Shown here in pieces: positions 20,076 through 43,645 of a stretch of DNA of 64,000 nt (positions within the stretch are counted from its first letter, which is position 1; the number at the start of each line of letters is the position of its first letter). Both the position numbers and the translations under genes were made by a program. The notes beneath the pieces were generated by a model that was not told the origin of the DNA, made no database searches, and was given only the letters and a program-made list of their open reading frames with translations. The DNA is taken from NCBI RefSeq assembly GCF_056746865.1, contig NZ_CM163382.1. The stretch is one strand, 5' to 3'.

Positions 20076-20109
20076 CGAACCGGACGTGCACCTTTCAGCG
20101 CATCCGGCT
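20076..20109 (-). ncRNA. Group II intron domain V (catalytic hairpin)
   Basis: 34-nt GAGCCGG...GAAA...CCGGTTC hairpin matching the domain V consensus, just 3' of the reverse transcriptase stop. Confidence 0.75.
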
Positions 20110-20115
20110 CTCCAT

Positions 20116-24119: not shown

Positions 24120-25667
<1,548 letters not shown>

Positions 25668-25715
25668 TCACCCGCAACAAAAATGACGTGCACAACGGTT
25701 ACGGGCAGGAAACGG

Positions 25716-26642: not shown

Positions 26643-26671
26643 TCATACTCCATGATTTTCATCAGTCATAT

Positions 26672-26983: not shown

Positions 26984-27253
26984 ATCACCAGAGCAGGCCT
27001 GCCACAGATACTCCAGCCTGCTGCGGATATCTTTCGCCCCGCTTTCACTCTGCAGGGCTCTGATATGTGCGGGGAAAACGGTGCTGTTTCAGTGCTGTGC
27101 TCCGCCAGCGGTTTAGAAACAGGTTTTCCTGGATTTTTGACGCAATCCGGCCATCCCGGCGGGCCAGATGCAGGGCTACCAGCCCGCACCAGGCCAGATG
27201 TGCGGCTTTCCCTGATACCAGCTGCCCGCTGGCGATATTGTCACTCATGGCGC

Positions 27254-27769
27254 TTACTGGCTGCTGATATCAAAAACCGGTGTTTCTCCGGCGATGACCG
27301 GGCCGGAGAACAGGGTTATCTCCTGGACACGGTCAGAGTCCGCCACAATCACCGGTGTCAGCGTGGACTGTGCTTTCTGCTGAAGTAACGCAAGGTCAAA
27401 CCCGATGACGGGGTCACCGGTGCTGATCAGCTGGCCTTCCTGGGCAATACGCCGGAAACCCTCTCCCCTGAGGTCAACTGTGTTAATACCGAAGTGCACG
27501 AACAGTTCAGTGCCACTGTCGGTGCGGATGGAAAACGCGTGGTTTGTCTCCAGTATTTTACCGATAGTGCCGCTGACAGGAGCCATCAAGGTATCGCCGC
27601 CGGAAGGACGGATAGCAATACCATCCCCCACTATTTTCCCGGCAAACACAGCATCCGGAACCGTGTCCAGAGGGACAATTTCACCGGACAGCGGTGCCAT
27701 CACGCGGGTGACTTCCGCCGGTTTCTCATTTTCACTTATCAGTTGTTTAATCCTGCCCAGTAATCCCAT
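27254..27769 (-). CDS. PTS EIIA component, glucose family (Crr-like)
   Basis: MGLLGRIKQ...VFAGKIVGDGIAIRP...GKILETNHAFSI...ELFVHFGINTV resembles E. coli Crr. Confidence 0.8.
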   Translation of the reverse strand: MGLLGRIKQLISENEKPAEVTRVMAPLSGEIVPLDTVPDAVFAGKIVGDGIAIRPSGGDTLMAPVSGTIGKILETNHAFSIRTDSGTELFVHFGINTVDLRGEGFRRIAQEGQLISTGDPVIGFDLALLQQKAQSTLTPVIVADSDRVQEITLFSGPVIAGETPVFDISSQ

Positions 27770-27832
27770 TGTGCTTTCCTTCATTACGGGTGAACCGAAA
27801 GTACTGCCGTCACCGACGGCAGTGGAATTATT

Positions 27833-29263
27833 TCAGGCCAGCGTCCACAGTGAGCCGTCCGTCAGCACAGCCTCGCCGTGAGCTGCATATAGCGACAACC
27901 GGCGGGTTCCGGGCTGCGGGTAAATACGGCTGGACAGGGTGGCATCGCCATCGTTAACGAACACTTCCACCGATGAACGGTCCAGGAAAACCCGTAGCGT
28001 CAGATATTCTGCGCCAGGCAGCGCGATACTGCGGTAACCGTCCAGCCCCTCATCCGGGTAGTGACGCCAAAGCACCAGCCGTCCTGCCTGGTTATCCACA
28101 TACAGCCGGAGCCCGTCTCCCAGGTGGATGCCGTAATGCTCTGCCTGACTGTCGAGGGTATGCCACGTCAGCACCAGTTCCACGGCCTGTGCGTCCTCAG
28201 CCAGCAACTGCGTGCCACTGAGCCTTACAGGGTGTAACGGCTGGCACGTCCCGCGAAGGGATTCGGCTTCGCGAACCGGACGCTGACACAGACGACCATG
28301 GCGTTCAAAAAGTTCCCTCGGCAGGGTCAGACATCCGGCCCAGGCCTCACGCTTTGTAGGCATCGGGGAGTCCCACATATTCATCCAGGCCATGATGATG
28401 CGCCGTCCGTCCTCCGCGACCAGGGACTGCGGGGCATAAAAATCATGACCGTGATCCAGTTCTTCAAATGCCCCGCTCAGGGCAAAGGCGGCCCCCGGCT
28501 GCCAGTGACCCGGTAAAACTCCGCTCTGAAAGCGGTTGCGGAACCGGTATCCGCCGGGCGTCATCCCCTGCGGGGAGAACATCAGCCAGTGATGGTCGCC
28601 ACAGCGGAAAAAGTCCGGACATTCCCACATATAGCTTTCTCCGGCTGCCGACTGCGCTAGAACCCGTTCCTGGCGCCAGTCCCGCAGGGATGTGCCGCGA
28701 TACAGCAGCACCTGACCGGTGTCAGAGGTATCCCGCGCGCCGATAACCATCCACCAGTATCCCCCTTCCCGCCAGACCTTCGGGTCACGGAAATGCATGA
28801 TGCCTTCCGGTGGCGTCAGCACGCAGCCCTGTTTCTCAAAGTGAATGCCGTCACGGCTGGTTGCCAGACACTGGACTTCGCGGATGATGCTGTCATCCCC
28901 CCGATCCTCCAGACAGAGATGACCGGTGTAGATAAGCGACAGCACGCCGTTGTCGTCCACTGCGCTGCCGGAAAAACAGCCATCCCGGTCATATTCATCA
29001 CCGGGTGCCAGCGCAACCGGCTCATGCTGCCAGTGCAGCATGTCCGGACTGGTGGCATGTCCCCAGTGCATCGGCCCCTGATGTTCACTTGCCGGATGGT
29101 GCTGAAAGAATGCGTGATAGCGACCGCTGAAATAAATAAGCCCGTTCGGATCATTCATCCATCCGGCAGGTGGAGCCAGATGAAAAACCGGGTACCAGGT
29201 ATCACCACGACGGGCGCGGAGTGTATCAAGTGCAACCTGTGCAGAGGCAAGACGCTGTTTCAT
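27833..29263 (-). CDS. rafD: GH32 sucrose/raffinose hydrolase (invertase; RafD/ScrB/CscA family)
   Basis: WMNDPNGL, FRDPKVW and ECPD GH32 catalytic motifs. Confidence 0.8.
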   Translation of the reverse strand: MKQRLASAQVALDTLRARRGDTWYPVFHLAPPAGWMNDPNGLIYFSGRYHAFFQHHPASEHQGPMHWGHATSPDMLHWQHEPVALAPGDEYDRDGCFSGSAVDDNGVLSLIYTGHLCLEDRGDDSIIREVQCLATSRDGIHFEKQGCVLTPPEGIMHFRDPKVWREGGYWWMVIGARDTSDTGQVLLYRGTSLRDWRQERVLAQSAAGESYMWECPDFFRCGDHHWLMFSPQGMTPGGYRFRNRFQSGVLPGHWQPGAAFALSGAFEELDHGHDFYAPQSLVAEDGRRIIMAWMNMWDSPMPTKREAWAGCLTLPRELFERHGRLCQRPVREAESLRGTCQPLHPVRLSGTQLLAEDAQAVELVLTWHTLDSQAEHYGIHLGDGLRLYVDNQAGRLVLWRHYPDEGLDGYRSIALPGAEYLTLRVFLDRSSVEVFVNDGDATLSSRIYPQPGTRRLSLYAAHGEAVLTDGSLWTLA

Positions 29264-30552
29264 AAGCGAACCTCCGTCTGTGCTGTAGCGGTTTCTGCTG
29301 ACGGGGCAGCCGTTTTACGGGTACTGCTCAGGGTGAAAGCCGATAACACGGTGACCGCAAGGACAATACCGCCCAGAACCAGATAGGTGTTCTGGAACCC
29401 CATGCGGTCATACAGGTGACCTGCAAAGGTTGAGAGGAATATCGCCGCCAGTTGTTTGGAGAACTGAAAGCCAATCAGATAAATGGTGGCCGACAGCCGG
29501 GTATCAAACACGCCGGTGATATACTTGAACGCACCAACCAGCAGGAATGGGACTTCAAGGGCATGCAGCATTTTCAGGATCACCACTTCAGTAGCCGTGG
29601 TGGCAAAGGCCGACCCTGTGATGCGGATGGTCATAATCAGACCCGCGACAAGCAGTGTGTTTTTGGCACCAATGCGGTTGATTATCCAGGGGGAGCAGAA
29701 CATGATGATGGCATTGCAAATCTCGCCAGCCGTGGTGGCAAAACCAAATGCCCGGATCCCCGCCTGCGGCGTGTCAAAAAATGCACGGAAGAACGTGGCA
29801 AACTGCTGGTCAAACACGTCATAGACGCAGGCCACCCCAATCATGTAAAGCACGAACATCCACATCTGACGCATACGAAACAGACTGAACACCATTCCGG
29901 CGGAAATCACGGGCGAGTTGGCACCCAGCGCATTCATGACCATCGCTGTCTGACTGGTTCCGGGACGCGCCAGCGCCACCAGAAGGACCAGCAGCAATGC
30001 GCAGCCGGACCCCATCCAGAATACCAGGGACGGATCCACGTTGAAAAGCAGCCCTGCCGTGGTGGCACACAGCGCCCAGCCCAGACAGCCGAACATCCGG
30101 GCCTTACCGTATTCAAATCCGCTGCTGCGGCTGACACGTTCAATATAGGCTTCGATGGCACCGGCTCCCGCAGAAAAAACGAAGCCGATAAAAATCCCGC
30201 CGCTCAGTGCTCCGGCCCAGATGTTGAACCGCAGCAGCGGCGCAAAAACGTACAGAAAGAACGGTGCAAACAGGACCAGCAGCAGGCTGATGATCCACAT
30301 CAGGTGTTTTTTCAGGCCAAGACGGTCTGAGATGACCCCCAGCAGCGGCTGGAAGCTGATGGCAAACAGGGAGAGGCATGAAAAAACAATCCCGGTATCC
30401 GTTTTACTCAGCCCCACAATGTCTGACAGCCAGACGGGCAGAAACGGGAAACAGGTTGCCATGATGAAAAAGTAGAGAAAAAAGAACAGACCAAATATCC
30501 AGAAATCGGGGTTTTTATGAGTACTGACAGTATTCATTATTGTTATCCTCAC
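29260..30552 (-). CDS. rafB: LacY-family oligosaccharide:H+ symporter (raffinose permease RafB-like); start may be the ATG at 30537
   Basis: 12-TM MFS protein with strong similarity to LacY (NPDFWIFGLFFFLYFFI...). Confidence 0.8.
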   Translation of the reverse strand: MRITIMNTVSTHKNPDFWIFGLFFFLYFFIMATCFPFLPVWLSDIVGLSKTDTGIVFSCLSLFAISFQPLLGVISDRLGLKKHLMWIISLLLVLFAPFFLYVFAPLLRFNIWAGALSGGIFIGFVFSAGAGAIEAYIERVSRSSGFEYGKARMFGCLGWALCATTAGLLFNVDPSLVFWMGSGCALLLVLLVALARPGTSQTAMVMNALGANSPVISAGMVFSLFRMRQMWMFVLYMIGVACVYDVFDQQFATFFRAFFDTPQAGIRAFGFATTAGEICNAIIMFCSPWIINRIGAKNTLLVAGLIMTIRITGSAFATTATEVVILKMLHALEVPFLLVGAFKYITGVFDTRLSATIYLIGFQFSKQLAAIFLSTFAGHLYDRMGFQNTYLVLGGIVLAVTVLSAFTLSSTRKTAAPSAETATAQTEVRL

Positions 30553-30591
30553 GGGACTGAGTGCAGGGAGCCGTGACCGGCTCCGGTCCTT

Positions 30592-32718
30592 TTATGCCAA
30601 ACGTTCAAGGGCAATCAGCATGGCGCTTTCCGGATCCAGTACGGGAAGCTGAATACCGGCCTGCGCCAGCCATTCCCCACTGATGTCGGAGGTCTGGTTC
30701 ATCCAGCCGGGCAGCCTGCGCATGGTATGCCCGCCTTCACCGACCAGCTGAATATCCGGATGGTCAACAACACGAAGCCGGTAACGGGCCTGTGGTGCCA
30801 GCCCCGGAAAACGTAGAGCACCCGGCAGGGTGTGATCCGGCATGGCAAGCTGGCTCACCAGGAAGAGCGCCTGCGACTGATCCGGGCTGACCACCCCCTG
30901 CACCTGTGTCGCCGCATCCGGCATATCCACCCGCCATAGGGTGCCCGTGTGGATAAGCTGCCGCCATTCTTTGTAGAGCGAGGCATAGCGGCGGTAACCG
31001 GCGGATTCCTCTTCTCCGGCCGTTACCGGATCCAGCTCCAGTCCCATATGACCGAACAGGGCCGTCAGACCGCGAAAGGCAATGCTGTGCTGCCGGAAGG
31101 TGGCATGGCAGCGATGATGACCGATGTGTGCCCCCATAACCTCCGGCGGGAAAAAGTAACTCATGCCACGCTGTATGGTGCAGCGCTCCAGGGCGTCATT
31201 GTTGTCAGAAGCCCAGAAGCGGTGCGTGCGGGTCAGAACCTCAAAGTCGATACGTCCACCGCCGGAAGCGCAGGACTCAAACTCAACACGGGGAAAACGT
31301 TCGCGCAGGAGATCCAGCAGCCGGTAAAACTGACGGGTCTGCGCGTCCGCCGCCGCCCGACCTTCATGCCCGGCCTGGACCAGCTCGCGGTTCATGTCCC
31401 ATTTCACATAGTCAACTGGGTGTTCGCCCAGCAGCCATAAACAGCGTTCATAAATGTAAGCAAAGGCCTCAGGAATGTTCAGGTTGAGAACATACTGATG
31501 TCTCCCGGTTGGTTGTGTGTACCCCGGCATTGACAGTACCCAGTCAGGATGGCGGCGAAAGAGGTCAGAGTCCGGGTTAATCATTTCCGGTTCCACCCAG
31601 ATACCGAACTCCATGCCGAGTGATTTCACATGGTTAATCACCGGCATCAGTCCGTCCGGATACTTCTGTTCATCCAGATACCAGTCGCCCAGAGCCGCAT
31701 GGTCATCATTGCGTCCCTTAAACCAGCCGTCGTCGATAATGAAACGTTCAACGCCAAGCGCTGCCGCACGTCCGGCCATCTGCATGATGTAGTTCGGGTC
31801 GTGGTCAAAATAAATACCTTCCCAGGTATTGAGGTGCACCGGACGGGGTTTCTGCTCAGGAAAACGGATGATTTCATCGCGCAGAAAACGGTGGTACTGC
31901 TGACTCATACCATTGAGCCCCTCCGGGGAATAGCTGGCGTACAGCCACGGCGTGTACACGGTCTCATCCTTCTTCAGGGCTTTTTCTCCGGGCATCCACA
32001 GTGCTTCCGCCTGGAGGTAACGCCGTCCGTCAGTTTTGACCTCACATTTCATGCGATGGTTGCCACTCCAGCCCAGATGTACGGCCCACACCTCGCCCTG
32101 CTGTTCTGAGAAACCGGGGGCACCGGCAATCAGTGCCGGAAAATGCTCATGGGACGTGCGGCCCCGGCGGTTCTCCAGCACAAAACCGTCATGTGTGAGA
32201 CGGACCCTGTGCGGCTGAAACTCACGAGTCCAGCGTCCGTGGAAGGCCATGACTTCCTCTGCCCTTTCAGCCACAGGGAGCGTGATGGCGAAGCGGTTCA
32301 CCTGCCAGTCCCCTTCACGGAGGTTCGTCAGGGCATGACGCATCTTCAGCACACCGGACGATGTCAGCACCAGTTCACTGACCATGCGCAGACCCGCCAC
32401 TGCATCCTCACTGGTCAGGGTGAGTGATTCTCCGGCCTGTACCACGCTGATGGTACGGAACACAGGGGACGCATCCAGCCCGTTGCGGTGTCCCTCCAGC
32501 CCCGGCGAGCCAAAAAGTCCCGCGCCGTTTTCGGCCATCAGCGTCAGTGGGGTGTCGGTATCCAGACGACCATTCGCAACCGGCCTTTCCAGGCTGATAC
32601 AGTCATCCGGTGAAAAGTGTTTCAGGGTGGATCCCCACCAGACAATCTCTGCATACGGGTGGGTTTTAATAATCAGGTCTGAGTGGGGACTGGTCAGCCT
32701 GCGGTACATCGGTTCCAT
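30592..32718 (-). CDS. rafA: GH36 alpha-galactosidase (RafA-like)
   Basis: 708-aa protein; KWDMNR and CASGGGR segments of family 36 alpha-galactosidases. Confidence 0.8.
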   Translation of the reverse strand: MEPMYRRLTSPHSDLIIKTHPYAEIVWWGSTLKHFSPDDCISLERPVANGRLDTDTPLTLMAENGAGLFGSPGLEGHRNGLDASPVFRTISVVQAGESLTLTSEDAVAGLRMVSELVLTSSGVLKMRHALTNLREGDWQVNRFAITLPVAERAEEVMAFHGRWTREFQPHRVRLTHDGFVLENRRGRTSHEHFPALIAGAPGFSEQQGEVWAVHLGWSGNHRMKCEVKTDGRRYLQAEALWMPGEKALKKDETVYTPWLYASYSPEGLNGMSQQYHRFLRDEIIRFPEQKPRPVHLNTWEGIYFDHDPNYIMQMAGRAAALGVERFIIDDGWFKGRNDDHAALGDWYLDEQKYPDGLMPVINHVKSLGMEFGIWVEPEMINPDSDLFRRHPDWVLSMPGYTQPTGRHQYVLNLNIPEAFAYIYERCLWLLGEHPVDYVKWDMNRELVQAGHEGRAAADAQTRQFYRLLDLLRERFPRVEFESCASGGGRIDFEVLTRTHRFWASDNNDALERCTIQRGMSYFFPPEVMGAHIGHHRCHATFRQHSIAFRGLTALFGHMGLELDPVTAGEEESAGYRRYASLYKEWRQLIHTGTLWRVDMPDAATQVQGVVSPDQSQALFLVSQLAMPDHTLPGALRFPGLAPQARYRLRVVDHPDIQLVGEGGHTMRRLPGWMNQTSDISGEWLAQAGIQLPVLDPESAMLIALERLA

Positions 32719-32811
32719 AAGACATCTCCGTTTTCGGGTATGCCTTACTGTTGATCCGAATCGTTTCGGATAGCAACCGAAACGATTCGAATTTGTGAGC
32801 GGGATTAAAAA

Positions 32812-33822
32812 TCAGGCGGAGGGAGCAAGCGTTGTCTTGCCAGGATGAAATTCCGGCTGCCAGAGTACTTGTAGCATTTCAGGTGAAACATTCGTGACCA
32901 GCTGGCGTATCATGTCGTCAATCTGACGACCGACGCGATGTCGTGTTGACTGAAGAACTGCAGCCACATCCTGTTCAATAATACTGTCCTGCGGCAGACC
33001 ATCATAAACCACAAGAGAGACGGCATCCTCTCCGGACAGATGACCGGATAACTGCAGCGACATGGCCGCGCCATCACCGATCAGGTCACTGTCGGTAATA
33101 ATGGCCGTCGGGGGAAGCGGAAGTGACATTAACTCAGTCACTGCCTGGAAACCTGAGCGTCGGGTGGGAGAGACCCGGCGTAGCCAGGTCTCAGGCAGAC
33201 CATGTTCACTCAGGGCATCGCGCCATCCCTGACGTCGTGCAGTGACATAGGCACGGGAGTTGTCCTCACTCAGCAGGGCAATTCGCTGATGGCCCAGGGC
33301 AATCAGGTGCTGTGTGGCCTGCCAGGTTCCTGCATGGTTATCAAAGTCAAACCAGGCACAGGGAAGACCGGACGGCACCTGACCGAGTGCCAGAAACGGA
33401 ATACCGGCCTCCTGCAGGTGTGTAAGACGCGGGTCATTATCCATCGTGTGCGCCACGATAAGGGCATCAACCCGGCGGCTTTCGACCAGACGCATATAGC
33501 TGTGGCTGTCAGCCCGTTCATCATCGGCTATCAGCAGTAAGTCAATATCATGGCGGGCCAGTTCCCGGCTGATACAACTGACCATATCCACAAACACACT
33601 ACTGCTGAACAGTACAGCATGTTCAGGGAAGACCAGGCCGACCGCATCGGTTTTACCGGTTTTGAGACGTCTTGCCAGGGTATTCGGGCGATAACCACGA
33701 CGCCGAGCTTCCGCTTCTACACGTGCACGGGTCGAAGCGGAAACGTCCGAAAATCCGCCAAGCGCCCGGCTGACTGTGGTGACAGAGATCCCGAGTTCGG
33801 CGGCGATAGCCTTGAGTGACAT
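32812..33822 (-). CDS. rafR: LacI-family transcriptional repressor (RafR-like)
   Basis: N-terminal HTH LKAIAAELGISVTTVSRAL plus periplasmic-binding-fold effector domain. Confidence 0.8.
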   Translation of the reverse strand: MSLKAIAAELGISVTTVSRALGGFSDVSASTRARVEAEARRRGYRPNTLARRLKTGKTDAVGLVFPEHAVLFSSSVFVDMVSCISRELARHDIDLLLIADDERADSHSYMRLVESRRVDALIVAHTMDNDPRLTHLQEAGIPFLALGQVPSGLPCAWFDFDNHAGTWQATQHLIALGHQRIALLSEDNSRAYVTARRQGWRDALSEHGLPETWLRRVSPTRRSGFQAVTELMSLPLPPTAIITDSDLIGDGAAMSLQLSGHLSGEDAVSLVVYDGLPQDSIIEQDVAAVLQSTRHRVGRQIDDMIRQLVTNVSPEMLQVLWQPEFHPGKTTLAPSA

Positions 33823-34156
33823 ATTTTCTCCTGCGGATAACTGAACAGCCCTGTCCCTGATGCGGGTGATCCGGGCAACAAACCTGACAGAGACGCCTGC
33901 ATAAGTGGTCGCGCTGTACCAGTATGAGCCTCCATCATCCTGATTTGTGTATTAACTTTCAATACCGGAGGACGATTTGATTACCGGTTGTTAGCAGGAG
34001 TGCGAATATTAGACCGACGGTGGAGATCTAAGACTCAGTGAGCATAGCGATACACTATATTACTGTAATTAAGCCAGTAAACTTCCTGTTCACTGGCTTA
34101 AACGCTAATGATGTATGCAGTTGAACAAGCTTTTAAACTAATGATTAATTGATATA

Positions 34157-35245
34157 TAGACTGGCCCCCTGAATCTCCAGACAATCAATATCACTTAAAT
34201 AAGTGATAGTCTTAATACTAGTTTCTAGACTAGTCATTGGAGAATAGATGATTGATGTCTTAGGGCCGGAGAAACGCAGACGGCGTACTACACAGGAAAA
34301 GATCGCTATTGTTCAGCAGAGCTTTGAACCGGGAATGACGGTCTCCCTTGTTGCCCGGGGATGGGGAGTAAGCTTAGTCAGCCGTTGTCTCCGGGTGTCG
34401 CGTGCGCAGTTGCACGTCATTCTCAGACGAACCGATGACTGGAAAGATGGTCGCCGCAGCCGTCACTCAGATGATACGGATGTGCTTCTCCGTATACACC
34501 ATGTTATCGGAGAGCTGCCCACGTATGGTTATCGTCGGGTATGGGCGCTGCTTCGCAGACAGGCCGAACTTGATGGTATGCCTGCTATCAATGCCAAACG
34601 TGTTTACCGGATCATGCGCCAGAATGCGCTGTTGCTTGAGCGAAAAACCGCTGTACCGCCATCGAAACGGGCACATACTGGCAAAGTGGCCGTGAAAGAA
34701 AGCAATCAACGATGGTGCTCTGACGGGTTCGAGTTCCGCTGTGATAACGGAGAAAAACTGGGGGTCACGTTCGCGCTGGACTGCTGTGACCGTGAGGCAC
34801 TGCACTGGGCGGTCACTACGGGCGGCTTCGACAGTGAAACAGTACAGGACGTCATGCTGGGAGCGGTGGAACGCCGCTTCGGCAGCGAGCTTCCGACATC
34901 TCCAGTGGAGTGGCTGACGGATAATGGTTCATGCTACCGGGCTAATGAAACACGCCAGTTCGCCCGGATGCTGGGACTTGAACCGAAGAACACGGCGGTG
35001 CGGAGTCCGGAGAGTAACGGCATAGCAGAGAGCTTCGTGAAAACGATAAAGCGTGATTACATCAGTATCATGCCCAAACCAGACGGGTTAACGGCAGCAA
35101 AGAACCTTGCAGAGGCGTTCGAGCATTATAACGAATGGCATCCGCATAGTGCACTGGGTTATCGCTCGCCACGGGAATATCTACGGCAGCGGGCCAGTAA
35201 TGGGTTAAGTGATAACAGGTGTCTGGAAATATAGGGGCAAATCCA
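34157..35245 (+). mobile_element. IS2 deletion derivative (1,089 bp instead of ~1,331 bp)
   Basis: IS2 ends TAGACTGGCCCCCTGAATCTCCAGACAA... and ...CTGGAAATATAGGGGCAAATCCA; internal deletion between two TTGCCCGG repeats. Confidence 0.85.
34248..35234 (+). CDS. IS2 InsC(1-37)::InsD in-frame fusion transposase created by the internal deletion
   Basis: [37 protein letters not shown] joined directly to [21 protein letters not shown]... (InsD). Confidence 0.8.
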
Positions 35246-35440
35246 ATGGCGCAGATACGCTTGCGGATCGATACCATTCAGACAGCAGGTCCGTTCACTA
35301 CCGTAATCGCTGCCGAAGAACACATTGATTGCCCCTCAATAATCCTGCCGTCAACGTCAAAATTGCTGGTCGGGCTCGACTTATTTAATTGTGTAAACAG
35401 GGCCTCTCAGCGAAAGGCCCTTATGCATCACCTGACGTCG

Positions 35441-36007
35441 TTAAAAGTCACTACACCCAAGATGACGTTCAATGGCACCATGCGATTCAATGTAAGCCTG
35501 GGCCGTCTGTTCCAGTACACCAGGCTCAGCGTTGTATGTGTTAGCTGCATCAAATACCAACGACAGCACTTCAGGATACACAACCAGATGTGTAATGGAG
35601 TTATCTTCACCCAATACTTTTCCCCACGCCTGCTCAATCAGATTTCTGAGAGCCACCACCTCACGACTCTTACACCAGACATCGTTATTAAGTAGCAGTA
35701 CCATAAGATAAGGAGTGGTATCGTTAGCCACAGCTTCCCTACTCCAGAGATAATATAAAGGGGCGGGCTCAACAGATTTATCTTTACGTCGCTTGCACTG
35801 CAAATATTCAGAAATTAGTCTATGCAGTTCACCAGTAAAATCAGCCATCAGAGAGGGAATTGCCTTGTTCATACCTGGGCAAGGTATTAATTTAAATTGT
35901 AATAATTTAATTTTAGGATGTGTAGCTGCAGCCCGATACAGAGTTGCAAGGACATACTTTTGCCAGAGGGCGTTACAGGAAAGCTTAACGTTTGATTCTG
36001 TATACAT
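35441..36007 (-). CDS. Hypothetical protein (188 aa), AT-rich island gene
   Basis: ORF followed by a hairpin (35398-35422); no family recognised. Confidence 0.45.
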   Translation of the reverse strand: MYTESNVKLSCNALWQKYVLATLYRAAATHPKIKLLQFKLIPCPGMNKAIPSLMADFTGELHRLISEYLQCKRRKDKSVEPAPLYYLWSREAVANDTTPYLMVLLLNNDVWCKSREVVALRNLIEQAWGKVLGEDNSITHLVVYPEVLSLVFDAANTYNAEPGVLEQTAQAYIESHGAIERHLGCSDF

Positions 36008-36034
36008 AATAAATCACCTTACAGTTACAATAGG

Positions 36035-36649
36035 TCAAAAACCGCTGTAGCCAAAGTTACGCTGGCCTGATGCTTTAGTGTCGAGCTTCGTCAGATAATC
36101 CAGACGTGCCAATAAGCGCTGATATTGCTCAGGGAAATCAGGATCGTTAATATCCAGGATGTAACGTCCATTAGCAGGGAAATGAACTAGTCCCTGGTGA
36201 TCTTCCAGTTCTAACCCTAAGGCACTGTACCAGGCTCCGGTAATTAACCCTCTCAGGGTGTCAGAGCGCTCATAGTCTCCCAGGTGGTAATAGGCGTCTT
36301 TGTTAAAAAAAAGGCAGACGTGATAATGACATTTAAAGGACTGCGTATATTCTTTCGCCCAGATAATACAAACCGACGTTGCGTAGGTGCGTTTGCCTTG
36401 TTGTTTTTTACGGTGTTGATCTGCATTAATTTTCGCATTCAGCGAGTTACGGAAACGAGATATCTCTCCGGGACTCAGGTTAGGAAAACAGGTAATGGTA
36501 TCCCCGTTGTCAATCACGGGAGGATAATGGAGATCCACCCGTATTGCCGTTATTCTGGGATGTTTCTGGAAGAGGTTATTCACCTGGTTTCTTATTTTTA
36601 ACCCGTGAGCCTCATGACATTCACCGTAAAGAGTTTCAATCGTAATCAT
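36035..36649 (-). CDS. YagK/YfjJ-like (inovirus Gp2-type) prophage protein, tentative
   Basis: Size (~204 aa) and position match the yagK/yfjJ genes of CP4-type elements; family call from memory only. Confidence 0.45.
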   Translation of the reverse strand: MITIETLYGECHEAHGLKIRNQVNNLFQKHPRITAIRVDLHYPPVIDNGDTITCFPNLSPGEISRFRNSLNAKINADQHRKKQQGKRTYATSVCIIWAKEYTQSFKCHYHVCLFFNKDAYYHLGDYERSDTLRGLITGAWYSALGLELEDHQGLVHFPANGRYILDINDPDFPEQYQRLLARLDYLTKLDTKASGQRNFGYSGF

Positions 36650-36739
36650 GTTAATATTCCTTTTGCTTTCAGAGATAAGCTAATAGTTAACCTACCCAAT
36701 ACACAACAGAAGCAGATATTAATATTCGTATCAGTAGTT

Positions 36740-36845
36740 CCCAGAGGGATATATAACCCTCTGGGCGTCAATTAAGAAAAACGCTACTGCCTATTGTTAC
36801 ATTAGAGAACAGGATGATGTTACACAGTTACATTAGAACGTTCTA
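36740..36845. promoter_or_regulatory. Iteron/operator-like repeat cluster in a 380-bp AT-rich intergenic region
   Basis: Palindrome CCCAGAGGG-atatataa-CCCTCTGGG (36740-36765); direct repeats GTTACATTAGA(G)AAC at 36796 and 36827; 12-bp palindrome TAGAACGTTCTA (36834-36845). Confidence 0.45.
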
Positions 36846-37030
36846 AAACATTAAACAGAGTTATGATCTACACACAACTAATTATTTGGTATCAGAATAC
36901 CATTAGCTCTATTAGTACATCATATCCATCATTACACATATACTATACATCACAGATATAATATATATTACCTATCCAACGCACATGTATTTATAACTCC
37001 ATTGCCAATAGCTACAAGGACTATAAAATG

Positions 37031-37591
37031 TTACTCTGCAGTTAGATCAACAATACCTTTATCCCAGTGTCTTTTTACAGTGGATAAACTGATGCTTAAT
37101 TTTCTGGCTGTTTGTGACTGACTGAACCCCTGCAATTTCAACTGTCTGATATTTTTACTATGAATACTCCCTTCTTTCCTTCCTGGTTTTCTTTTAATTT
37201 TCCGGATACTGATGTCGGGAATTTTTCCTCTAATATCTGTAGGTAAAATCATCCCGGTGAGTACCACAGGAATATCATCACCATCCGGCAACTCTGATGA
37301 CGTAAAAAAGCAAATATTAATACCTTGTCTGATACTTAAAGATAAAACCTCCTGTATTTTTTCCGGCGTATTACCAAAACAAGTTAACGATTTAGTAATC
37401 AGAATATCACCCCTTTGCATATCCTGCGTCAGGAGTCGAACTAACCGTTTTCTGTCTGCCAGAGTATAATCCGGGCGACCCAATTCGCCTGTTAACTGCA
37501 ATAGTGGTTCTTTAAAATATCTCTGAATCATGGATTTTAAGCGATTAAGTTTTGACCATTTTTCAGAGTCTATGTATGCAAAACTCGCCAT
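37031..37591 (-). CDS. Serine-recombinase (resolvase/invertase) homolog with C-terminal HTH, lacking the catalytic residues
   Basis: Aligns to gamma-delta resolvase (GDILITKSLTCFGN vs GDVILVKKLDRLGR; C-terminal HTH ...QTARKLSISLSTVKRHW) but YARVST is replaced by YIDSEK and DR..R by TC..N. Confidence 0.6.
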   Translation of the reverse strand: MASFAYIDSEKWSKLNRLKSMIQRYFKEPLLQLTGELGRPDYTLADRKRLVRLLTQDMQRGDILITKSLTCFGNTPEKIQEVLSLSIRQGINICFFTSSELPDGDDIPVVLTGMILPTDIRGKIPDISIRKIKRKPGRKEGSIHSKNIRQLKLQGFSQSQTARKLSISLSTVKRHWDKGIVDLTAE

Positions 37592-37812
37592 AATGCCTCA
37601 AACTGGTGTCATGAATTAATTATTGAACCTGTTTTTTCCTGAGTCGCATTACTCTTTTCTAAGGGAGGCTCTCCAGATACATCGGAAAAGTACTCGATAA
37701 AAGAGTTGGCCACTCCCGGGTAATGATTGCTCTCTTTAACCTCAGAAAGCGGTTTCTGTTCATCATTTACACCACGATTTCTGGGTTATGAATAAATCTA
37801 CGCGGGCCATAA

Positions 37813-38559
37813 TCATTCATCTTCAAATGGGTTAATAATAATAACATCTCCACCTGTTCTGGAACTTTGTGAAACTTCCTCTGTTCTCAGAACAGGCACT
37901 ATTACAGCCTTATTATTGATATAAAAAATCGGAATATGAAAAGTACAAAATCCTGTACTACGAATCTGATGTCGCCTCACTGTTTCTTTCGTACCATACT
38001 CAATCAACTCATCTATCGGCAGGCAAACTGAATTGCAAAAGTCAAAAAAATAATCCCCAAAAACACTGGTTTTAATCAGAATGGTTTTATAAAACCCTCC
38101 TGCACGATTCAGGGTATGGGAAACTTTTCTGTTCGTGTAAATACAAATTGCCTTCTCAACTTTATAATATTCCAGCATTAAGGTCGCATTCTCTTTAATT
38201 CCCTTTTTCTCTGCAACTCCCATAGCATTTCTGGTGCTTTCATGAGGAAATATCTTTCTATCGAGAACATCATATTCATATTTGATATGCGATTTATAAA
38301 TGCTATGAAAAAACTCTCCTTTTGTTATTTCAGGCTTTGTCCGTTGCACAAATGGTTCCTCATTAAAAAACTGACGTAGCTTATCCTCTATATCAGTTAT
38401 AGCAGCAATATTTTCATTTATCCTGTTTAAAACAGGAGCCCCTAGCTTTAAACACTCTTTAATCGCTGCTGAAAATGAGCATTTTTTTAAATGCTGATAC
38501 TTTTTAATTACATCAGCTTCATATGTTTCTGCAAGAGAGAAAGAGACACGTTTCATCAT
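37813..38559 (-). CDS. Hypothetical protein with N-terminal ribbon-helix-helix-like domain (248 aa)
   Basis: N-terminus MMKRVSFSLAETYEADVIKKYQHLKKCSFSAAIKECLKLG has the beta-strand/helix pattern of RHH (CopG/Arc) domains; the remainder is unassigned. Confidence 0.45.
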   Translation of the reverse strand: MMKRVSFSLAETYEADVIKKYQHLKKCSFSAAIKECLKLGAPVLNRINENIAAITDIEDKLRQFFNEEPFVQRTKPEITKGEFFHSIYKSHIKYEYDVLDRKIFPHESTRNAMGVAEKKGIKENATLMLEYYKVEKAICIYTNRKVSHTLNRAGGFYKTILIKTSVFGDYFFDFCNSVCLPIDELIEYGTKETVRRHQIRSTGFCTFHIPIFYINNKAVIVPVLRTEEVSQSSRTGGDVIIINPFEDE

Positions 38560-38621
38560 GAAACTCCTTTTTAATTATAAAATTAAAATATAGAAATATA
38601 TATTATTCTGATACTATAAGG

Positions 38622-38849
38622 TTAATACTGACTAATCCACCACAATAGATCACTTAATAACCACCCACAGGATTTCTTTCCAATAGTTTTACGTGGCGGG
38701 AATTTTCCTTCACGTTCCAGTTTCCAGGCTTGTGAACGAGAAATAGACGTAATTTTCTGGCGTTCCTTTTCTCGTACCAGTCTGTCACAGGTGTATCCAT
38801 AGATCTTCAAAATTGATAAACGGTTCTCATCTCTTAACGGCTTCCACAT
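38622..38849 (-). CDS. AlpA-family prophage transcriptional regulator
   Basis: ...ITSISRSQAWKLEREGKFPPRKTIGKKSCGWLLSDLLWWI matches the AlpA pattern (SRSTIYRL..GKFP.P.KLG.RSV.W...V..WI). Confidence 0.65.
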   Translation of the reverse strand: MWKPLRDENRLSILKIYGYTCDRLVREKERQKITSISRSQAWKLEREGKFPPRKTIGKKSCGWLLSDLLWWISQY

Positions 38850-39628
38850 ATTGCTCTCCTTATATATTCATGATTTTCAGATTGTATATGCATGTGAGCT
38901 GCTCAAATCACTACATCTATCTGTAGTGGTATGCTGTTGAACAGCACCAGCAACTCACGAGCAAAACAATACATTTGCACAACCAAGAAATCAAATTGCG
39001 AGAAATGATTTAATTAACTGACTTCTAATAACACAATAACAACAAAGAAAGTCACAATATAAAAATAACTTAAACAATGCTTTTTGGTATACAAAATAAA
39101 AATCAAAATCACAATATTCGTAGGTTATTTTATGCAGACAAAAACAAAAAAAATCTTGTTATAATCTATGATATCAAGAGGAGGGGTAGTGACCAAAAAT
39201 TCTCCCCAGAAAAGCCCCCACAACATTAGTTTGAAAACGTGACGAAGTTCACAAAATTATCTTCTGGCGATAATAGAACTTGTAAGAGGGAGTTGATTTT
39301 TGCCAACTTTCTAAAGCTAAAGTGCAGACAAAAGATAATAATTGAATGAAAACGATACATATTTTCAGATGAAAGTGACGTGACTGTAGAGGGCTATAAC
39401 CGTAAAATCATTTGCGTCCTGAGCAATATGCAACAAAAGGGAATGCTCGTAAAAAAATCAGGAATAAACGCTAAGGATATCGTATTAGATTCAGCATCGT
39501 ATAATGCCACTGCATAACTGATTCCCATTTCGTAGAGGCTGTTAACTCTGTATCAATGTCCTGACAAAGGACTGTATCAAGTTTCTCTACTGGAAACAGC
39601 TATGCAATAGACGGAAGAATTTAACATT

Positions 39629-41233
39629 ATGGTAACTAAAAAGGTAAAAACAAACCACCCGTACTATCGTGTTTTATCCGGCACCTCCATGCCGTTTCCC
39701 CACATACATGAAGCTGTTTCCGAACAGTTGCTTCTACTCATTTTCAAAGCACGCAGATTGTATCTGGATCCAGAATATCGTCCTTGGTTTGATGAACAAC
39801 ATCGGATTCTCTCGGCATTACGCGCTAACACAAAACTCCAAAGTATTTTAGAGAAAAACAGAGAGAACTACTCCATAAGTGAGACCGATAATCCACTATC
39901 TAAAGATCTGTATGCTGCTTTTCAGGTTATGTGCCATTTATACAATGGTTTTGATAACAGACTCGTCAGCCTGAAAACCTGGGGAGATATGAACAGGGAA
40001 CCAACAGCAAAATTTGTCGGCCAAAATAGTGGTGGCTGGAAAACACCTGAGATGGAAGAATTCGTCAGAAACGATTTGTTCAATATTCTGACAGATTGTA
40101 AAGCTCATTGCTCACCACTTCCCGCTCTGGTTCGACAAGGATATTGCCATCAGGATCTTTCTGTTGCGCACTCATGTACTAAAGAATTACTGGAACAACT
40201 GAACCGATACCATCAAATTGATGAATCAGCGATACTTGCCAGAACCCTTGGTTTGGCTATTAACAACTGCTATCACTCAGAAACAGAGATTCCTGAATGG
40301 CTTTCTCCTTTTGAAAATGAATACAAAAGTCCCTGGAATTGTGAGAAACCAGATACTAACGATGTGAGTAAACTTAGAAAACAATTGCTAACAATCGGGC
40401 GTACAGAATTCGTGGACAAAATGTTTTCGCTAGCCAACAAAAATGCAACAAAGATAATATATGATGGATACGTTAAACTTTATGCTCTGGAAATATATGA
40501 ATGGTTAAATAAATTAGTGCAATATTTTAAAGGAAATGATTTTATTCGTTACACCTGGAAGTTCACAACAATTATTTCCGATGAAAGTGACACGATTGAA
40601 AACACCACCGCATGGGAAAAAGACTATTGTCAAATCACTATACAGCGTGATGAACTTCTGAAACTGATTTATACCAATACCCTGCAGGATGCAGCAATGA
40701 ATCTTGCTGATTGCCTGCAACAGGCATACACAGAACCGTTAAAAATGGAAATAAATTATCCAGGAATAAACATTGATGCAAAAGAGCGTAAAATTAGAAA
40801 ATCTATTGAATTCAGGAGCGAACTGAATAACTTCACAAACATCATGAAACAACTGGAAATATTTGAAAAATGGTATAACGCCAATAAAATTCTGTTGGTA
40901 AGTAACAAAAAGATACGTACAGAAAAGATTGACGTGAATATTCGTCTTGCAGGACTAAAAGGCTATGATCTGAATGAAGGTATACCTGATGGTCAGGGAC
41001 GCAGAATTAAAGATGGTGTAAATGAACTTGTCAAGGCAGATGGCAGTCTACAACTTCCACAAGATATCAGTGACACTTCGCTTAACCGTTACCGTCAAGC
41101 AGTTCAACACATTATTAAGGATGAGATCGACACGTTGCTGATAGCACAGAGGGAAAAAAATAAAATAAATCCATATAGCGAAGATAGATACTCGATACGA
41201 CCTTTATGGGGAAAATGTCTGGTCGAACAGTAA
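39629..41233 (+). CDS. Hypothetical protein (534 aa), AT-rich, in the integrase-proximal cargo slot; function unknown
   Basis: Long ORF with SD GGAAG upstream; no recognisable catalytic motifs apart from a possible R-x4-H (RQAVQH) near the C-terminus. Confidence 0.6.
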   Translation: MVTKKVKTNHPYYRVLSGTSMPFPHIHEAVSEQLLLLIFKARRLYLDPEYRPWFDEQHRILSALRANTKLQSILEKNRENYSISETDNPLSKDLYAAFQVMCHLYNGFDNRLVSLKTWGDMNREPTAKFVGQNSGGWKTPEMEEFVRNDLFNILTDCKAHCSPLPALVRQGYCHQDLSVAHSCTKELLEQLNRYHQIDESAILARTLGLAINNCYHSETEIPEWLSPFENEYKSPWNCEKPDTNDVSKLRKQLLTIGRTEFVDKMFSLANKNATKIIYDGYVKLYALEIYEWLNKLVQYFKGNDFIRYTWKFTTIISDESDTIENTTAWEKDYCQITIQRDELLKLIYTNTLQDAAMNLADCLQQAYTEPLKMEINYPGINIDAKERKIRKSIEFRSELNNFTNIMKQLEIFEKWYNANKILLVSNKKIRTEKIDVNIRLAGLKGYDLNEGIPDGQGRRIKDGVNELVKADGSLQLPQDISDTSLNRYRQAVQHIIKDEIDTLLIAQREKNKINPYSEDRYSIRPLWGKCLVEQ

Positions 41234-41315
41234 CTCACTGAGAAAGGGGATAGCAGTTCGCTATCCCCAAAGGAGACTTTCCAGCAAGATCTCAAAAAAT
41301 GAGACACTCAGCAAA

Positions 41316-41942
41316 TTATGCGGCTTTACCATTAACAGATTCAGCCACAAGAACGACAGCGTGTCTGTTTCGCTCAGGATGTTCACTCCAGATTTCTGAT
41401 TCCGGGATGCTTTTCCCGTCATAACTGATCCGTTCGCCATCAAACGGGTAATACCGTGCGGAATCAGTATCTAAAATAAACACCTTCAGATTCGTTGAAC
41501 GACGCGCAATATGCTGCCAGAGAGCTTTACCTCCTTCATATTGCTCGTTATCACTTAATAGTACAACGCCCGCTTTTGTGACTATCGTTTCATAAACAAA
41601 CGTTGCAAGACCAACATCACGTACAGCGCCATCGACAACAATCCCTTCAATCTGAGCAACATCCTGTTCTTCCCAGAATTTCTGGACAAACACGCCTTCA
41701 AGCCGGGGACGACGCTGAAGCTCCAGAGTGGCAACAACCTTATGGCGAACATCACCATCAATAACAGAAGGTGCAGCTTCGATTACCGCAGCAAACGGAG
41801 TCTTTGGATCCCAGATGATCTGGTAAAGCACGCCCTGAATAGTTACTCCATCCAGTATCGAAAAACGACGAGCTACAGTAGCAGGGGAGTAAGACATTGG
41901 AATTACAGCCATTTTTGAATCCCCTCTGAGTAATACCGGCAC
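41316..41942 (-). CDS. Hypothetical protein (198-208 aa); GTG start at 41942 or ATG at 41912
   Basis: ORF convergent with the 534-aa gene; both candidate starts have an SD; no family recognised. Confidence 0.5.
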   Translation of the reverse strand: MPVLLRGDSKMAVIPMSYSPATVARRFSILDGVTIQGVLYQIIWDPKTPFAAVIEAAPSVIDGDVRHKVVATLELQRRPRLEGVFVQKFWEEQDVAQIEGIVVDGAVRDVGLATFVYETIVTKAGVVLLSDNEQYEGGKALWQHIARRSTNLKVFILDTDSARYYPFDGERISYDGKSIPESEIWSEHPERNRHAVVLVAESVNGKAA

Positions 41943-42041
41943 GAAAATTTACCTCAATAATTATAGTAAACAATACAAGAACCAAGTGCATCAACAATAC
42001 CCATCAATTGTACACAATTCGTACAGCAACCAGGAACTCCC

Positions 42042-43358
42042 TCACCTTCTGCCAAACAGATTGACAACATTATTGCCTGTTTGCTGTTGATAGTTATTAA
42101 CCCGGTCCTCCCAGATCTCAAGTGCTCTGCGTTTTTCTGGCAAATAATCGTATCGATCATAATGTTTTGAACTGACATCGTTCAACGCATGATTTTGAAT
42201 ACGATCGCGGATTTCCTTACTGATCCCAGCTTCTCCCATTAACGTTTTACAGGTCCGACGTAAGTCACGTGCTGTAAAAATTTTAAAGTCAGGATTAAAA
42301 GCCCGGAAATACATGATAGCGCGAGCCAGACTGTCCGTACGAACCGGACGCTTACCATTAGTCGAAAGTGGAAAAATGTAAGGGCTGGATTTTTCTTTTG
42401 TTAACTCCTGCACACAGGATAATTCCTGTAATGCTGATTCAGTCAACGGTATCAAATGCTCTCGTTTATTTTTAGAGACATCAGCAGTCACCAGCAGCGT
42501 TTTTTGTTGAAAATCAACATCACACCACTGACTGGCGATCATTTCGAAAGGACGTTGCCCTCCGGTATAGATACAGAATCGGATCAAATGTTGCATCAAT
42601 AATCCAACGTTGGTTGCTTCAGCAAAATGTTCCATTAGAAAACGCAACTCTTCAAGTGTCAGCCAGGTATCACCGACTTTTTCAGCAGATGACTGTTTCG
42701 GTATCACTGACACCGGATTTGCCTCCAGCCCAAAAGTAATCCCTACACTTGTGTTCATCGGATCGTTATCTGCTTTCAGTCCATAGTTAAATGCAGCCAT
42801 CAGGTAAGAACGGATCCGGTTAGAGTGAACCACAGCACCGCGCTGAATGATCCCGGCCAGGATATGTTTAATCTGTCCGGAAGTCACATCTTTAGCTTTA
42901 GTTTCACGGGGGATCACTGTATAGCATTCATTTTCAAGGCGTTTCAGAACATCCTGCCATGTCCTCTTATTATCAATTTTCATTTTGTTAACATAACCAT
43001 GAATCAATGCTTCAAATGAGCCCTGTGATTGATGGAGTTGTATCCGCTGCTGTTCTGCAAACTGTTGTCGTTCCAGTTCTGCCTGGGGATCCTTTCCTTC
43101 AATGAGCCAGGCACCATACTTTTTTGTCAGTTCATTCGCTGTGGCCAGTTTCATCTCAGGCCATATACCCAATTGAATGAATCTTTCTTTTTTCCCTTTT
43201 TCCACGTAATAGCGGAAATAGAAAATCTTGCTGCCAGAAGGCTGAACTTTGACACCAAGTCGTCCAGTGCCACGTTGAGAGCTGTTGCTCCAGACATAGA
43301 ACGATGTCTTTTTTGCTTTCAATGCTCGGATGGCTGTTTCAGTAAGATTGACGGCCAT
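42042..43358 (-). CDS. int: P4-type tyrosine integrase
   Basis: 438-aa protein with N-terminal arm-binding domain (KIFYFRYY...) and C-terminal tyrosine-recombinase domain; adjacent to the tRNA-derived attachment core. Confidence 0.85.
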   Translation of the reverse strand: MAVNLTETAIRALKAKKTSFYVWSNSSQRGTGRLGVKVQPSGSKIFYFRYYVEKGKKERFIQLGIWPEMKLATANELTKKYGAWLIEGKDPQAELERQQFAEQQRIQLHQSQGSFEALIHGYVNKMKIDNKRTWQDVLKRLENECYTVIPRETKAKDVTSGQIKHILAGIIQRGAVVHSNRIRSYLMAAFNYGLKADNDPMNTSVGITFGLEANPVSVIPKQSSAEKVGDTWLTLEELRFLMEHFAEATNVGLLMQHLIRFCIYTGGQRPFEMIASQWCDVDFQQKTLLVTADVSKNKREHLIPLTESALQELSCVQELTKEKSSPYIFPLSTNGKRPVRTDSLARAIMYFRAFNPDFKIFTARDLRRTCKTLMGEAGISKEIRDRIQNHALNDVSSKHYDRYDYLPEKRRALEIWEDRVNNYQQQTGNNVVNLFGRR

Positions 43359-43405
43359 AGAACCTCTTTTCTAAACCAGTAACAATCAGAATAACTCGTG
43401 ATTTT

Positions 43406-43428
43406 GGGTCAGGTAATGGGTCAGGTAA
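43406..43428. repeat. Tandem direct repeats GGGTCAGGTAA x2 between integrase and the att core (candidate integrase arm sites)
   Basis: Two 11-bp copies separated by 1 bp, located 48 bp upstream of the integrase start. Confidence 0.5.
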
Positions 43429-43554
43429 CGATCGTACAATGAAGAAAAAACGGAACCAAGCGGAGACAGGGAAAATCACATAATTTATTGATTACAAACA
43501 ACTAATAAAGCAATCACGAACAAACAAAAACAATATAGAACGAACTTGCCTCAT

Positions 43555-43601
43555 GACTCATAATCGCTTGGTCGCTGGTTCAAGTCCAGCAGGGGCCACC
43601 A
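43555..43601 (+). other. ileX: 3' 47 nt of tRNA-Ile(CAU) (ileX-type): island/backbone junction (att core); the 5' part of the tRNA is absent here
   Basis: GACTCATAATCGCTTGGTCGCTGGTTCAAGTCCAGCAGGGGCCACCA matches the remembered 3' portion of E. coli tRNA-Ile2 from the anticodon loop to CCA; sequence upstream does not match the tRNA. Confidence 0.7.
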
Positions 43602-43610
43602 GATATAGCA

Positions 43611-43645
43611 AAGGCTGACGAGAAATCGTCAGCCTTTTTCTTTTT
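43611..43645 (+). terminator. Rho-independent terminator (native ileX terminator)
   Basis: Hairpin AAGGCTGACG-agaaat-CGTCAGCCTT followed by TTTTTCTTTTT. Confidence 0.75.

Follow-up and report, generated by a model that had tools for sequence, protein, structure and literature searches.

An AT-rich eight-gene module is the integrase-bearing end of a 42–44 kb tRNA-Ile island

The window analysed here is a 64-kb stretch of DNA (64,000 nucleotides of contig NZ_CM163382.1, RefSeq assembly GCF_056746865.1), and the subject of this report is an AT-rich block of eight genes at positions 35246–43601, hereafter the module. The module is the integrase-bearing end of a 42–44 kb island in a gene for tRNA-Ile, an island of a kind that is already known. 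Very probably it represents the integrase-proximal backbone arm of a CP4-6-type integrative island in ileX that is mobile only as a whole. There is one att core and one arm-repeat pair in the window, and the only partner att site lies past the cargo, so that the recombining unit is the whole island and the module is unable to move alone; excision mediated by the integrase would take the entire 42–44 kb. The initial annotation of this DNA had suggested a self-contained mobilisable unit distinct from the metabolic cargo. The first part of that suggestion does not survive the placement of the att sites. The second part stands, as the G+C content, an IS2 element lacking target duplication at the junction and six types of cargo behind the same module show a separate history.

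Attachment sites and the two ends of the island

No tRNA gene was detected anywhere in the window by ARAGORN or Rfam. The intact tRNA lies at the opposite end of the island, more than 40 kb away, and the earlier description of the module as tRNA-proximal has to be reversed. What the window holds is a single copy of a 47-nt segment (43555–43601) identical to the 3' 47 nt of K-12 ileX, which encodes tRNA-Ile(CAU). Identity between attL and attR is limited to 20 bp of this segment, GACTCATAATCGCTTGGTCG, at 43555–43574, which reaches from the anticodon stem-loop as far as the variable loop and is presumed to be the crossover region; the remainder, 43575–43601, is the displaced native 3' end of ileX. 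The right flank consists of nfeF (yqjH), nfeR (yqjI) and aer, as at the K-12 ileX locus, and the site is unoccupied in K-12 and in most genomes.

The int gene starts 197 bp to the left of the core and reads away from it. The stretch between the two contains the tandem repeat TTGGGTCAGGTAATGGGTCAGGTAA, 46 bp away from the start codon of int and 126 bp away from the core; it has no other exact occurrence in the window and is presumed to be an arm-type integrase binding site. No second att site was found in the window with 48-, 25- or 20-nt versions of the core or with an 11-nt arm motif, allowing three mismatches in the core patterns and one in the arm motif.

The anatomy of the far end was read from two finished genomes that are 99.9–100% identical to the window where compared: RCAD0514, compared over window positions 19543–43601, and JSWP006, compared over the int-att-nfeF junction. 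From end to end the island measures 41.8 kb in RCAD0514, where it occupies ileY, and about 44.1 kb in JSWP006, where it occupies ileX. In the genome from which the window derives it spans at least 43.6 kb, the window starting within the hsdR fragment of the island. The order in both reference genomes is intact tRNA-Ile, DUF4942, DUF957, DUF5983, CbtA, a YeeU-type antitoxin, DUF987, RadC/JAB, an antirestriction protein, DUF932, Ag43, a GTPase, a type I restriction system, insertion sequence (IS) elements, cargo, IS2, the module, int and the 47-nt repeat. The 25-nt tandem repeat found between int and the core recurs in identical form about 60 bp past the intact tRNA. Since the two ends share the arm repeat, together they form a classical attP composed of P arm, core and P' arm. 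Arm repeats are thus present on both sides of the core, and the insertion lies in the 3' part of the tRNA gene with a direct repeat.

A hybrid tRNA stands at attL: its 3' portion comes from the island and reads GTTGGTTCAAACCCAAC in place of GCTGGTTCAAGTCCAGC, with a compensatory change in the T stem, and the hybrid is still called as a tRNA; the native 3' end sits at attR. Islands of Enterobacter, Escherichia sp. ESNIH1, Brenneria and Kluyvera have the T-arm of the hybrid in their host-derived attR, a hint at an earlier host.

The exact 25-nt arm repeat was found at 22 loci in 17 species, among them members of Enterobacter, E. albertii, Siccibacter, Kosakonia, Citrobacter, Kluyvera, Brenneria, Phytobacter, Erwinia, Vibrio, Salinivibrio and others. 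All of these loci conform to one of two fixed geometries: the repeat either stands beside an integrase 82–86% identical to that of the window, with the core about 150 nt off, or lies about 100 nt past a tRNA-Ile gene. The distance separating the two arms in Siccibacter is about 42.4 kb. In most genera a third, inverted arm repeat, TTACCTGACCC, is found in the P arm just upstream of the tandem pair (loci L023, L028, L031, L034, L036, L039, L043 and L044, compared with window positions 43370–43400). At three loci, in Siccibacter (L027), Escherichia sp. ESNIH1 (L030) and Salinivibrio sharmensis (L032), the P' arm follows DNA that is not a tRNA gene; in Salinivibrio sharmensis this DNA encodes an integrase 50% identical to that of the window, about 200 nt from the core. 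These loci resemble either attP junctions or islands lying in tandem in a single tRNA gene.

The arrangement suggests how the island may move. We infer that the N-terminal domain of the integrase would bind the GGGTCAGGTAA repeats flanking the core at both island ends, with strand exchange taking place inside the 20-bp core. Integration would then rebuild a functional hybrid tRNA at attL and leave the native 3' end at attR, and excision would restore attB, that is, native ileX followed by GATATAGCAAAGGCTGACG. The AlpA-family protein of the module would probably trigger int expression or excision, by analogy with CP4-57, so that the module would supply the control of integration and excision for the entire island. 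The HUH-motif YagK/YfjJ protein and the YagL and YagM homologues may serve the replication or maintenance of the excised circle.

Gene content of the module and its described relatives

Eight open reading frames (ORFs) are listed for the module in the 64-kb window, all of them intact and lying between 35441 and 43358 (Table 1), at the positions and in the order that the initial annotation had claimed. Its description of the block as AT-rich and coherent is likewise borne out. The G+C content is 39.7% at 35246–43553, compared with 57.0% in the sugar cargo (24000–33900) and 52.4% in the chromosome to the right. Among 5,426 complete genomes, the set to which all E. coli counts below refer, 255 carry the module at a coverage of at least 80%, with the same eight genes in the same order. 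This order is kept in all ten of the distinct neighbourhoods sampled, and every ORF is intact there.

The integrase has the Pfam domains Arm-DNA-bind_3 (8e-14), Phage_int_M and Phage_integrase (8e-10) and matches phrog_1 (7e-46). Its Arg-I, Arg-II, His-II and Tyr residues align with those of IntA and IntF, to both of which it is about 24% identical; identity to any integrase in 50,697 phage records is at most 39%. It is a tyrosine integrase with an N-terminal arm-binding domain (Arm-DNA-bind_3/DUF4102) and, His-I apart, the R...R...H...Y signature. Judged by domains and catalytic residues, it would fit an active integrase of the P4 type.

The 75 amino acid (aa) protein matches phrog_2790, 'excisionase and transcriptional regulator' (3e-22), carries PF05930 (Phage_AlpA) in precomputed annotation, is named as AlpA family in RefSeq and shows a weak match to K-12 AlpA. 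AlpA drives the excision of CP4-57, and by analogy the 75-aa protein is presumed to regulate excision and integrase expression. An AlpA-family regulator and a YagK/YfjJ protein are accordingly both found near int, and the CbtA-RadC-antirestriction-DUF932-GTPase block is present in JSWP006 and RCAD0514.

The YagK/YfjJ-like protein of the initial annotation is correctly named. It has 204 aa, is 57% identical to YagK and 39% to YfjJ, belongs to PF11726 and, in PHROGs, matches phrog_25019 and, weakly, a replication initiation protein. The HUH motif CHYHVCLFF and the Y-x-x-K motif LDYLTK are intact and conserved with YagK and YfjJ, as in HUH endonucleases of the inovirus gpII-like type, which makes the protein a candidate single-strand nickase or replication initiator. 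The 188-aa protein, earlier listed as an unknown, proves to be a second member of this family (PF11726, phrog_32179 and phrog_25019). Its residues aligned with the two motifs are PYLMVLLL and LEQTAQ; the HUH motif and the Tyr motif are both lost, and with them the endonuclease signature. Copies of the 188-aa gene that are about 95% identical are found in unrelated islands.

The 248-, 186- and 204-aa genes reproduce the order and orientation of YagM, YagL and YagK in CP4-6. The 248-aa protein is 31% identical to K-12 YagM over its full length (4e-29) and carries PF27701 (UCP007319) in precomputed annotation; the ribbon-helix-helix domain earlier attributed to this YagM homologue corresponds to a DUF6290 match at E = 0.39, which lacks significance. 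The 186-aa protein is 36% identical to K-12 YagL (1e-22), with an N-terminus that has diverged even from YagL. It matches HTH_7 at E 0.004 and Resolvase at E 0.09 and is collinear with Tn3 resolvase at E 0.04; it has LTCFGN at the place of LDRLGR, the catalytic loop of resolvase. Assignment as a serine recombinase was rejected, with Resolvase at that E value and only the C-terminal helix-turn-helix near significance. The protein is probably a degenerate resolvase-like relic retaining DNA binding only. Residues 46–119 (window 37235–37456) also match the phosphoribosyl pyrophosphate (PRPP)-loop region of hypoxanthine phosphoribosyltransferase at E ~3e-4, compared with E 0.04 for Tn3 resolvase. 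A relationship to that enzyme was considered and dropped: the match covers a strand-loop segment only and lacks the acidic PRPP-motif residues, which makes convergence the probable cause of the similarity.

In relatives of the island the backbone follows the order int-X-alpA-Y-Gp2, in which slots X and Y are variable. Slot X is occupied here by a GNAT-fold protein and a 534-aa protein, and slot Y by the YagM and YagL homologues; in an example from another species, X holds a Fic protein and a 298-aa protein and Y holds YfjI, which is found in slot Y of E. coli variants as well. The two proteins in X had both been regarded as orphans. This holds for the 534-aa protein, which is all-alpha, encoded on the plus strand and without assigned function. 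It does not hold for the other, encoded on the minus strand, which has the GNAT fold with acetyl-CoA motif A (R/Q-x-x-G-x-G/A); most databases start this gene at the ATG at 41912, giving 198 aa.

Between two islands in ileX (L003 14972–16585 against window 39629–41233) the 534-aa protein is 60% identical, and in the same pair the integrase is 98%, the GNAT protein 93% and AlpA 82% identical; the 534-aa gene either evolves fast or forms a local mosaic. In the P1-like phage-plasmids RCS47 (L045 5000–5596) and SJ46, a gene homologous to that of the GNAT-fold protein (78% nucleotide identity) stands alone between repL/IS605 and the genes for the baseplate. In ETEC1738 (L008 11046–14669), homologues of the GNAT, 534-aa, helix-turn-helix, YfjI and Gp2 proteins adjoin an intact thrW with no integrase between them, and this locus is a related backbone at another tRNA gene in which int is absent or located elsewhere.

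A search of the module proteins against PADLOC-DB 2.0 for anti-phage defence gave no match for seven of them; the integrase alone returned matches, two near E 1e-3. Scans of the module for promoters, terminators and repeats found only the ileX terminator above the shuffled background. None of the papers searched mentions the RefSeq accessions of the module proteins, and ileX occurs in them in a single context, a table that gives it as an insertion site of islands. The remaining novelty may lie in the uncharacterised int-proximal genes and in a possible role of the HUH protein. There is a slim chance that slot X is a hotspot of conflict genes, with the GNAT and 534-aa proteins jointly making up a toxin or anti-phage function not described before, or that the HUH protein nicks and replicates the excised island, which could then be mobilised in single-stranded form by a helper plasmid or filamentous phage.

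Table 1. Coordinates of the module genes, the attachment sites and the adjoining features (window positions unless a locus is named)
Feature	Position	Strand	Evidence
Tyrosine integrase, P4 type, 438 aa	42042–43358	-	Pfam, PHROGs, IntA/IntF alignment
GNAT-fold protein, 208 aa (GTG start) / 198 aa (ATG at 41912)	41316–41942	-	
534-aa all-alpha protein, variable slot between int and alpA	39629–41233	+	
AlpA-family small DNA-binding protein, 75 aa	38622–38849	-	PHROGs, PF05930, RefSeq name
YagM homologue, 248 aa	37813–38559	-	31% identity to K-12 YagM
YagL homologue, 186 aa	37031–37591	-	36% identity to K-12 YagL
YagK/YfjJ ('inovirus Gp2') family protein, 204 aa	36035–36649	-	PF11726, 57% identity to YagK
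Degenerate YagK/YfjJ paralogue, 188 aa	35441–36007	-	PF11726, phrog_32179, phrog_25019
Scrambled left edge of module (truncated gene and IS66-transposase remnant)	35246–35440	.	RefSeq, nucleotide match
IS2 with internal deletion, insC-insD fusion ORF, 328 aa; outside module	34157–35245	+	
P-arm tandem repeat TTGGGTCAGGTAATGGGTCAGGTAA, putative arm-type integrase site	43404–43428	+	Repeat search
attR core region (3' 47 nt of ileX)	43555–43601	+	Identity to K-12 ileX
Native ileX terminator hairpin, chromosomal flank just beyond island	43610–43637	+	Terminator scan; same in K-12
Chimeric tRNA-Ile at attL, predicted to be functional	L009 27735–27810; L005 35188–35263		T-stem change GTTGG...CCAAC

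The closest described element is CP4-6 of K-12, which has the layout thrW ... yagK-yagL-yagM-ykgV-yagN-intF followed by a repeat of the thrW 3' end. The initial annotation had noted a resemblance to CP4-6 and CP4-57, and the comparison of synteny supports it, closely for the yagK-yagL-yagM...intF series of CP4-6 and more loosely for intA-yfjH-alpA-yfjI-yfjJ of CP4-57. Both CP4-6 and the ileX island consist of an intact tRNA, a block of toxin-antitoxin, RadC, antirestriction, DUF932 and GTPase genes, an IS-ridden cargo, the YagK-YagL-YagM block (direct homologues with the identities given above), int and a repeat of about 47–49 nt. In both, int occupies the end opposite the intact tRNA and points inward, with its start 110–200 bp away from the repeat; in CP4-6 the 49-nt thrW repeat lies 110 bp past the start of intF. 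The two differ in their target, which is ileX or ileY, tRNA-Ile(CAU), rather than thrW; in the integrase, which is only about 25% identical to IntF; in the int-proximal slot, where CP4-6 has YagN and YkgV in place of the GNAT and 534-aa proteins; and in the AlpA-family gene, the extra degenerate YagK paralogue and the cargo of the ileX island.

With CP4-57 of K-12 (ssrA-intA-yfjH-alpA-yfjI-yfjJ) the island has in common the backbone logic int-X-alpA-Y-YfjJ/YagK, the AlpA-family regulator, the similarity of the 204-aa protein to YfjJ and, in some variants, YfjI in slot Y. The geometry of CP4-57, however, is the opposite, int lying directly beside the intact ssrA; its slot Y holds YfjI (DUF3987) rather than YagM and YagL homologues, and IntA is 24% identical to the integrase described here. 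Satellite phage P4 has an integrase of the same family, likewise inserts into the 3' portion of a tRNA gene and has arm-type repeats flanking its core on either side, but the island has no genes for replication, transactivation or capsid size, is about four times larger and carries metabolic and restriction cargo. The use of ileX as one of the insertion sites of an island in E. coli has been listed, for example, for the LAA pathogenicity island (PMC7545054, Table 3), which has this site in common with the present island; its cargo (hes, iha, lesP, pagC and others) is absent here.

Cargo, distribution and movement of the island

The IS2 derivative that the initial annotation had placed at the left boundary is confirmed. 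It is 1089 bp long, its internal deletion fuses insC to insD, and it ends exactly at 35245. It was recognised from a match to TnpB (1e-207) together with the N-terminus of TnpA, and its ends could be read directly. The flanking 5-mers are ATATA (34152–34156) and ATGGC (35246–35250) and do not form a 5-bp target duplication; because they differ, a rearrangement rather than a simple insertion is indicated, which implies that cargo and module were brought together through recombination or deletion mediated by IS2. On the module side, RefSeq annotates a partial hypothetical coding sequence at 35246–35323, and 35291–35472 matches an IS66-family transposase at 93%. In some genomes (L016, L021) IS2 lies 93 bp further out.

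Behind this one module, the neighbourhoods compared contain six types, and hence at least six different cargoes: raffinose/sucrose genes; Hha with zinc-ribbon proteins and BREX; IS26 with aac(3); a galactitol phosphotransferase system; pgaABCD joined via IS5; and the GTPase/Cah block joined directly. Such varied cargo behind a constant module identifies the module as the stable end of a frame, inside which cargo has been swapped at IS breakpoints.

Further to the left, positions 1–19500 of the window are an IS-bounded patchwork, with a C-terminal fragment of hsdR (85–1581), an operon of the dimethyl sulfoxide/selenate-reductase type (4185–9207) and a lactate-utilisation cluster comprising LutB (13203–14630), D-lactate dehydrogenase (15435–17132) and LctP (17564–19117). 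The cluster is followed by a group II intron at about 20026–21639. Two identical units, at 1729–3705 and 9561–11537, each consist of a truncated IS5-family and an IS3-family transposase with a match to Rfam isrC (150 bits), and bracket the reductase operon in the manner of a composite transposon.

The int-att-nfeF junction, which marks insertion in ileX, was found in 359 genomes, and 98 genomes have an int-att junction at ileY, the paralogous locus, on its ypjC side. The IS2/module junction is present in 191 genomes, and in 112 it is backed by the raffinose regulator. In RCAD0514, the same island with the same cargo sits in ileY as a clean insertion with native flanks on both sides. The occurrence of one island with one cargo at both ileY and ileX means that the whole island, and not the module, was placed at the two loci.

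Outside E. coli, a contig of Salmonella enterica carries the module with a nucleotide identity of 99.95%, next to a flank of yqjH, PadR and methyl-accepting chemotaxis protein genes that is only about 72% identical to that of E. coli. The module is 98.6–99.5% identical next to a second Salmonella-type flank (L015), and 99.9% identical next to a fimbrial/EAL flank (L013) that matches none of the E. coli genomes searched. The attR in L013 has a different T-arm, as expected if attR retains the tRNA end of the host. The presence of the same island at ileX, at ileY and at loci in other genera indicates that it moved recently.

CP101363.1 (L010), deposited as a linear 11.7-kb 'plasmid' of Salmonella enterica, contains the module together with yqjH and the genes for PadR and the chemotaxis protein, and stops at the IS2 boundary. 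Contamination with E. coli DNA was considered for this record and rejected, its flank sharing only 72% identity with E. coli against 97% with another Salmonella-type locus. A plasmid-borne copy was also rejected, as the two 'plasmid' matches are chromosomal contigs with yqjH/aer-type flanks; NZ_MG591698.1, a 354-kb 'plasmid' of E. coli, carries the aer-ebg-ygjK chromosomal region.

Alternative explanations and biological meaning

Several observations weigh against the reading of the module as the arm of an integrative island that moves as a whole. The attL of the window's own genome is off-window and was deduced from near-identical islands. His-I of the integrase is replaced by Arg, and the third, inverted arm repeat is absent from the window, as it is from E. 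albertii. The left edge of the module is IS-scrambled, and some of the backbone genes, namely the 188-aa paralogue and the resolvase-like protein, are degenerate. The island does not encode transfer machinery, none having been seen. Finally, a 645-nt reconstructed attP, with the predicted junction ...GAACGAACTTGCCTCAT followed by GACTCATAATCGCTTGGTCG and TTGGTTCAAACCCAACAGGGGCCACCATACACAACAAAGGG..., was compared by BLAST with the 5,426 E. coli genomes, and the exact junction was searched for in the other collections; no attP junction, excised circle or tandem was found in those genomes, IMG/VR, species-representative genomes or JGI metagenome contigs, where rare excision would be invisible in assemblies.

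Some of these points bear on the possibility that the module is a fossil, that is, the end of a recently mobile island which is now fixed, being silenced or defective, and is kept by hitch-hiking and by the toxin-antitoxin module at the far end. We regard this as possible but distinctly the less likely state of affairs. It would account for the failure to find attP in any collection searched, for the missing third arm repeat and for the degenerate paralogues and the IS insertions and deletions, and it has a precedent in CP4-6 of K-12, which counts as cryptic and whose excision is very rare. Against it, all eight ORFs are intact in every context sampled, nucleotide identity is 98.8–100% across E. 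coli, Salmonella and a third host, and the att junctions are precise at no fewer than four distinct loci. Taken together, intact ORFs, high identity and precise junctions argue for very recent integrase activity, and the integrase may be active at the present day.

Excision and spread of the 8.4-kb block on its own, independently of the metabolic cargo, is very improbable and largely refuted. The idea draws on the same block preceding at least six different cargoes, on a composition sharply unlike that of the cargo and on a junction IS2 without target duplication. All of this is met by IS-mediated replacement within a fixed frame, which accounts for the variation in cargo; and at the left edge lies an IS breakpoint whose position varies, with IS2 at two offsets or IS5, rather than an att site. 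Over the 64 kb there is a single att core with a single pair of arm repeats, the partner site is past the cargo, and the islands in ileX and ileY carry the same cargo, hence moved whole.

Least credible of all is a P4-like phage satellite or its remnant depending on a helper for packaging. The initial annotation had noted a resemblance to phage-satellite-like islands, and the P4-type integrase with Arm-DNA-bind_3, the AlpA-type regulator and tRNA integration speak for this reading. Against it, PHROGs revealed no primase-helicase and no Sid/Psu/Delta-type or cos-related functions (a cos site was not specifically searched for), the phage records contain no module-like DNA except the GNAT gene of P1-like phages, the integrase is distant from those of phages, and the element is 42–44 kb long with metabolic cargo.

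The integrase-proximal arm of a CP4-6-type island thus remains the preferred reading, and the current understanding of such islands is not overturned by it. The results define the true ends, the recombination sites and the exact attP and attB sequences of a family of tRNA-Ile(CAU) islands. This family is present in about 5–8% of complete E. coli genomes, and also in Salmonella, and carries sugar-utilisation, restriction, BREX and resistance cargo. Its cargo is exchanged inside a fixed island frame at IS breakpoints and not by the movement of a small integrase cassette. Two uncharacterised conserved proteins, together with the HUH protein common to CP4-6 and CP4-57, are candidates for island maintenance or conflict. 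Mobilisation by a helper, if true, would account for how an island without transfer genes has reached three genera.

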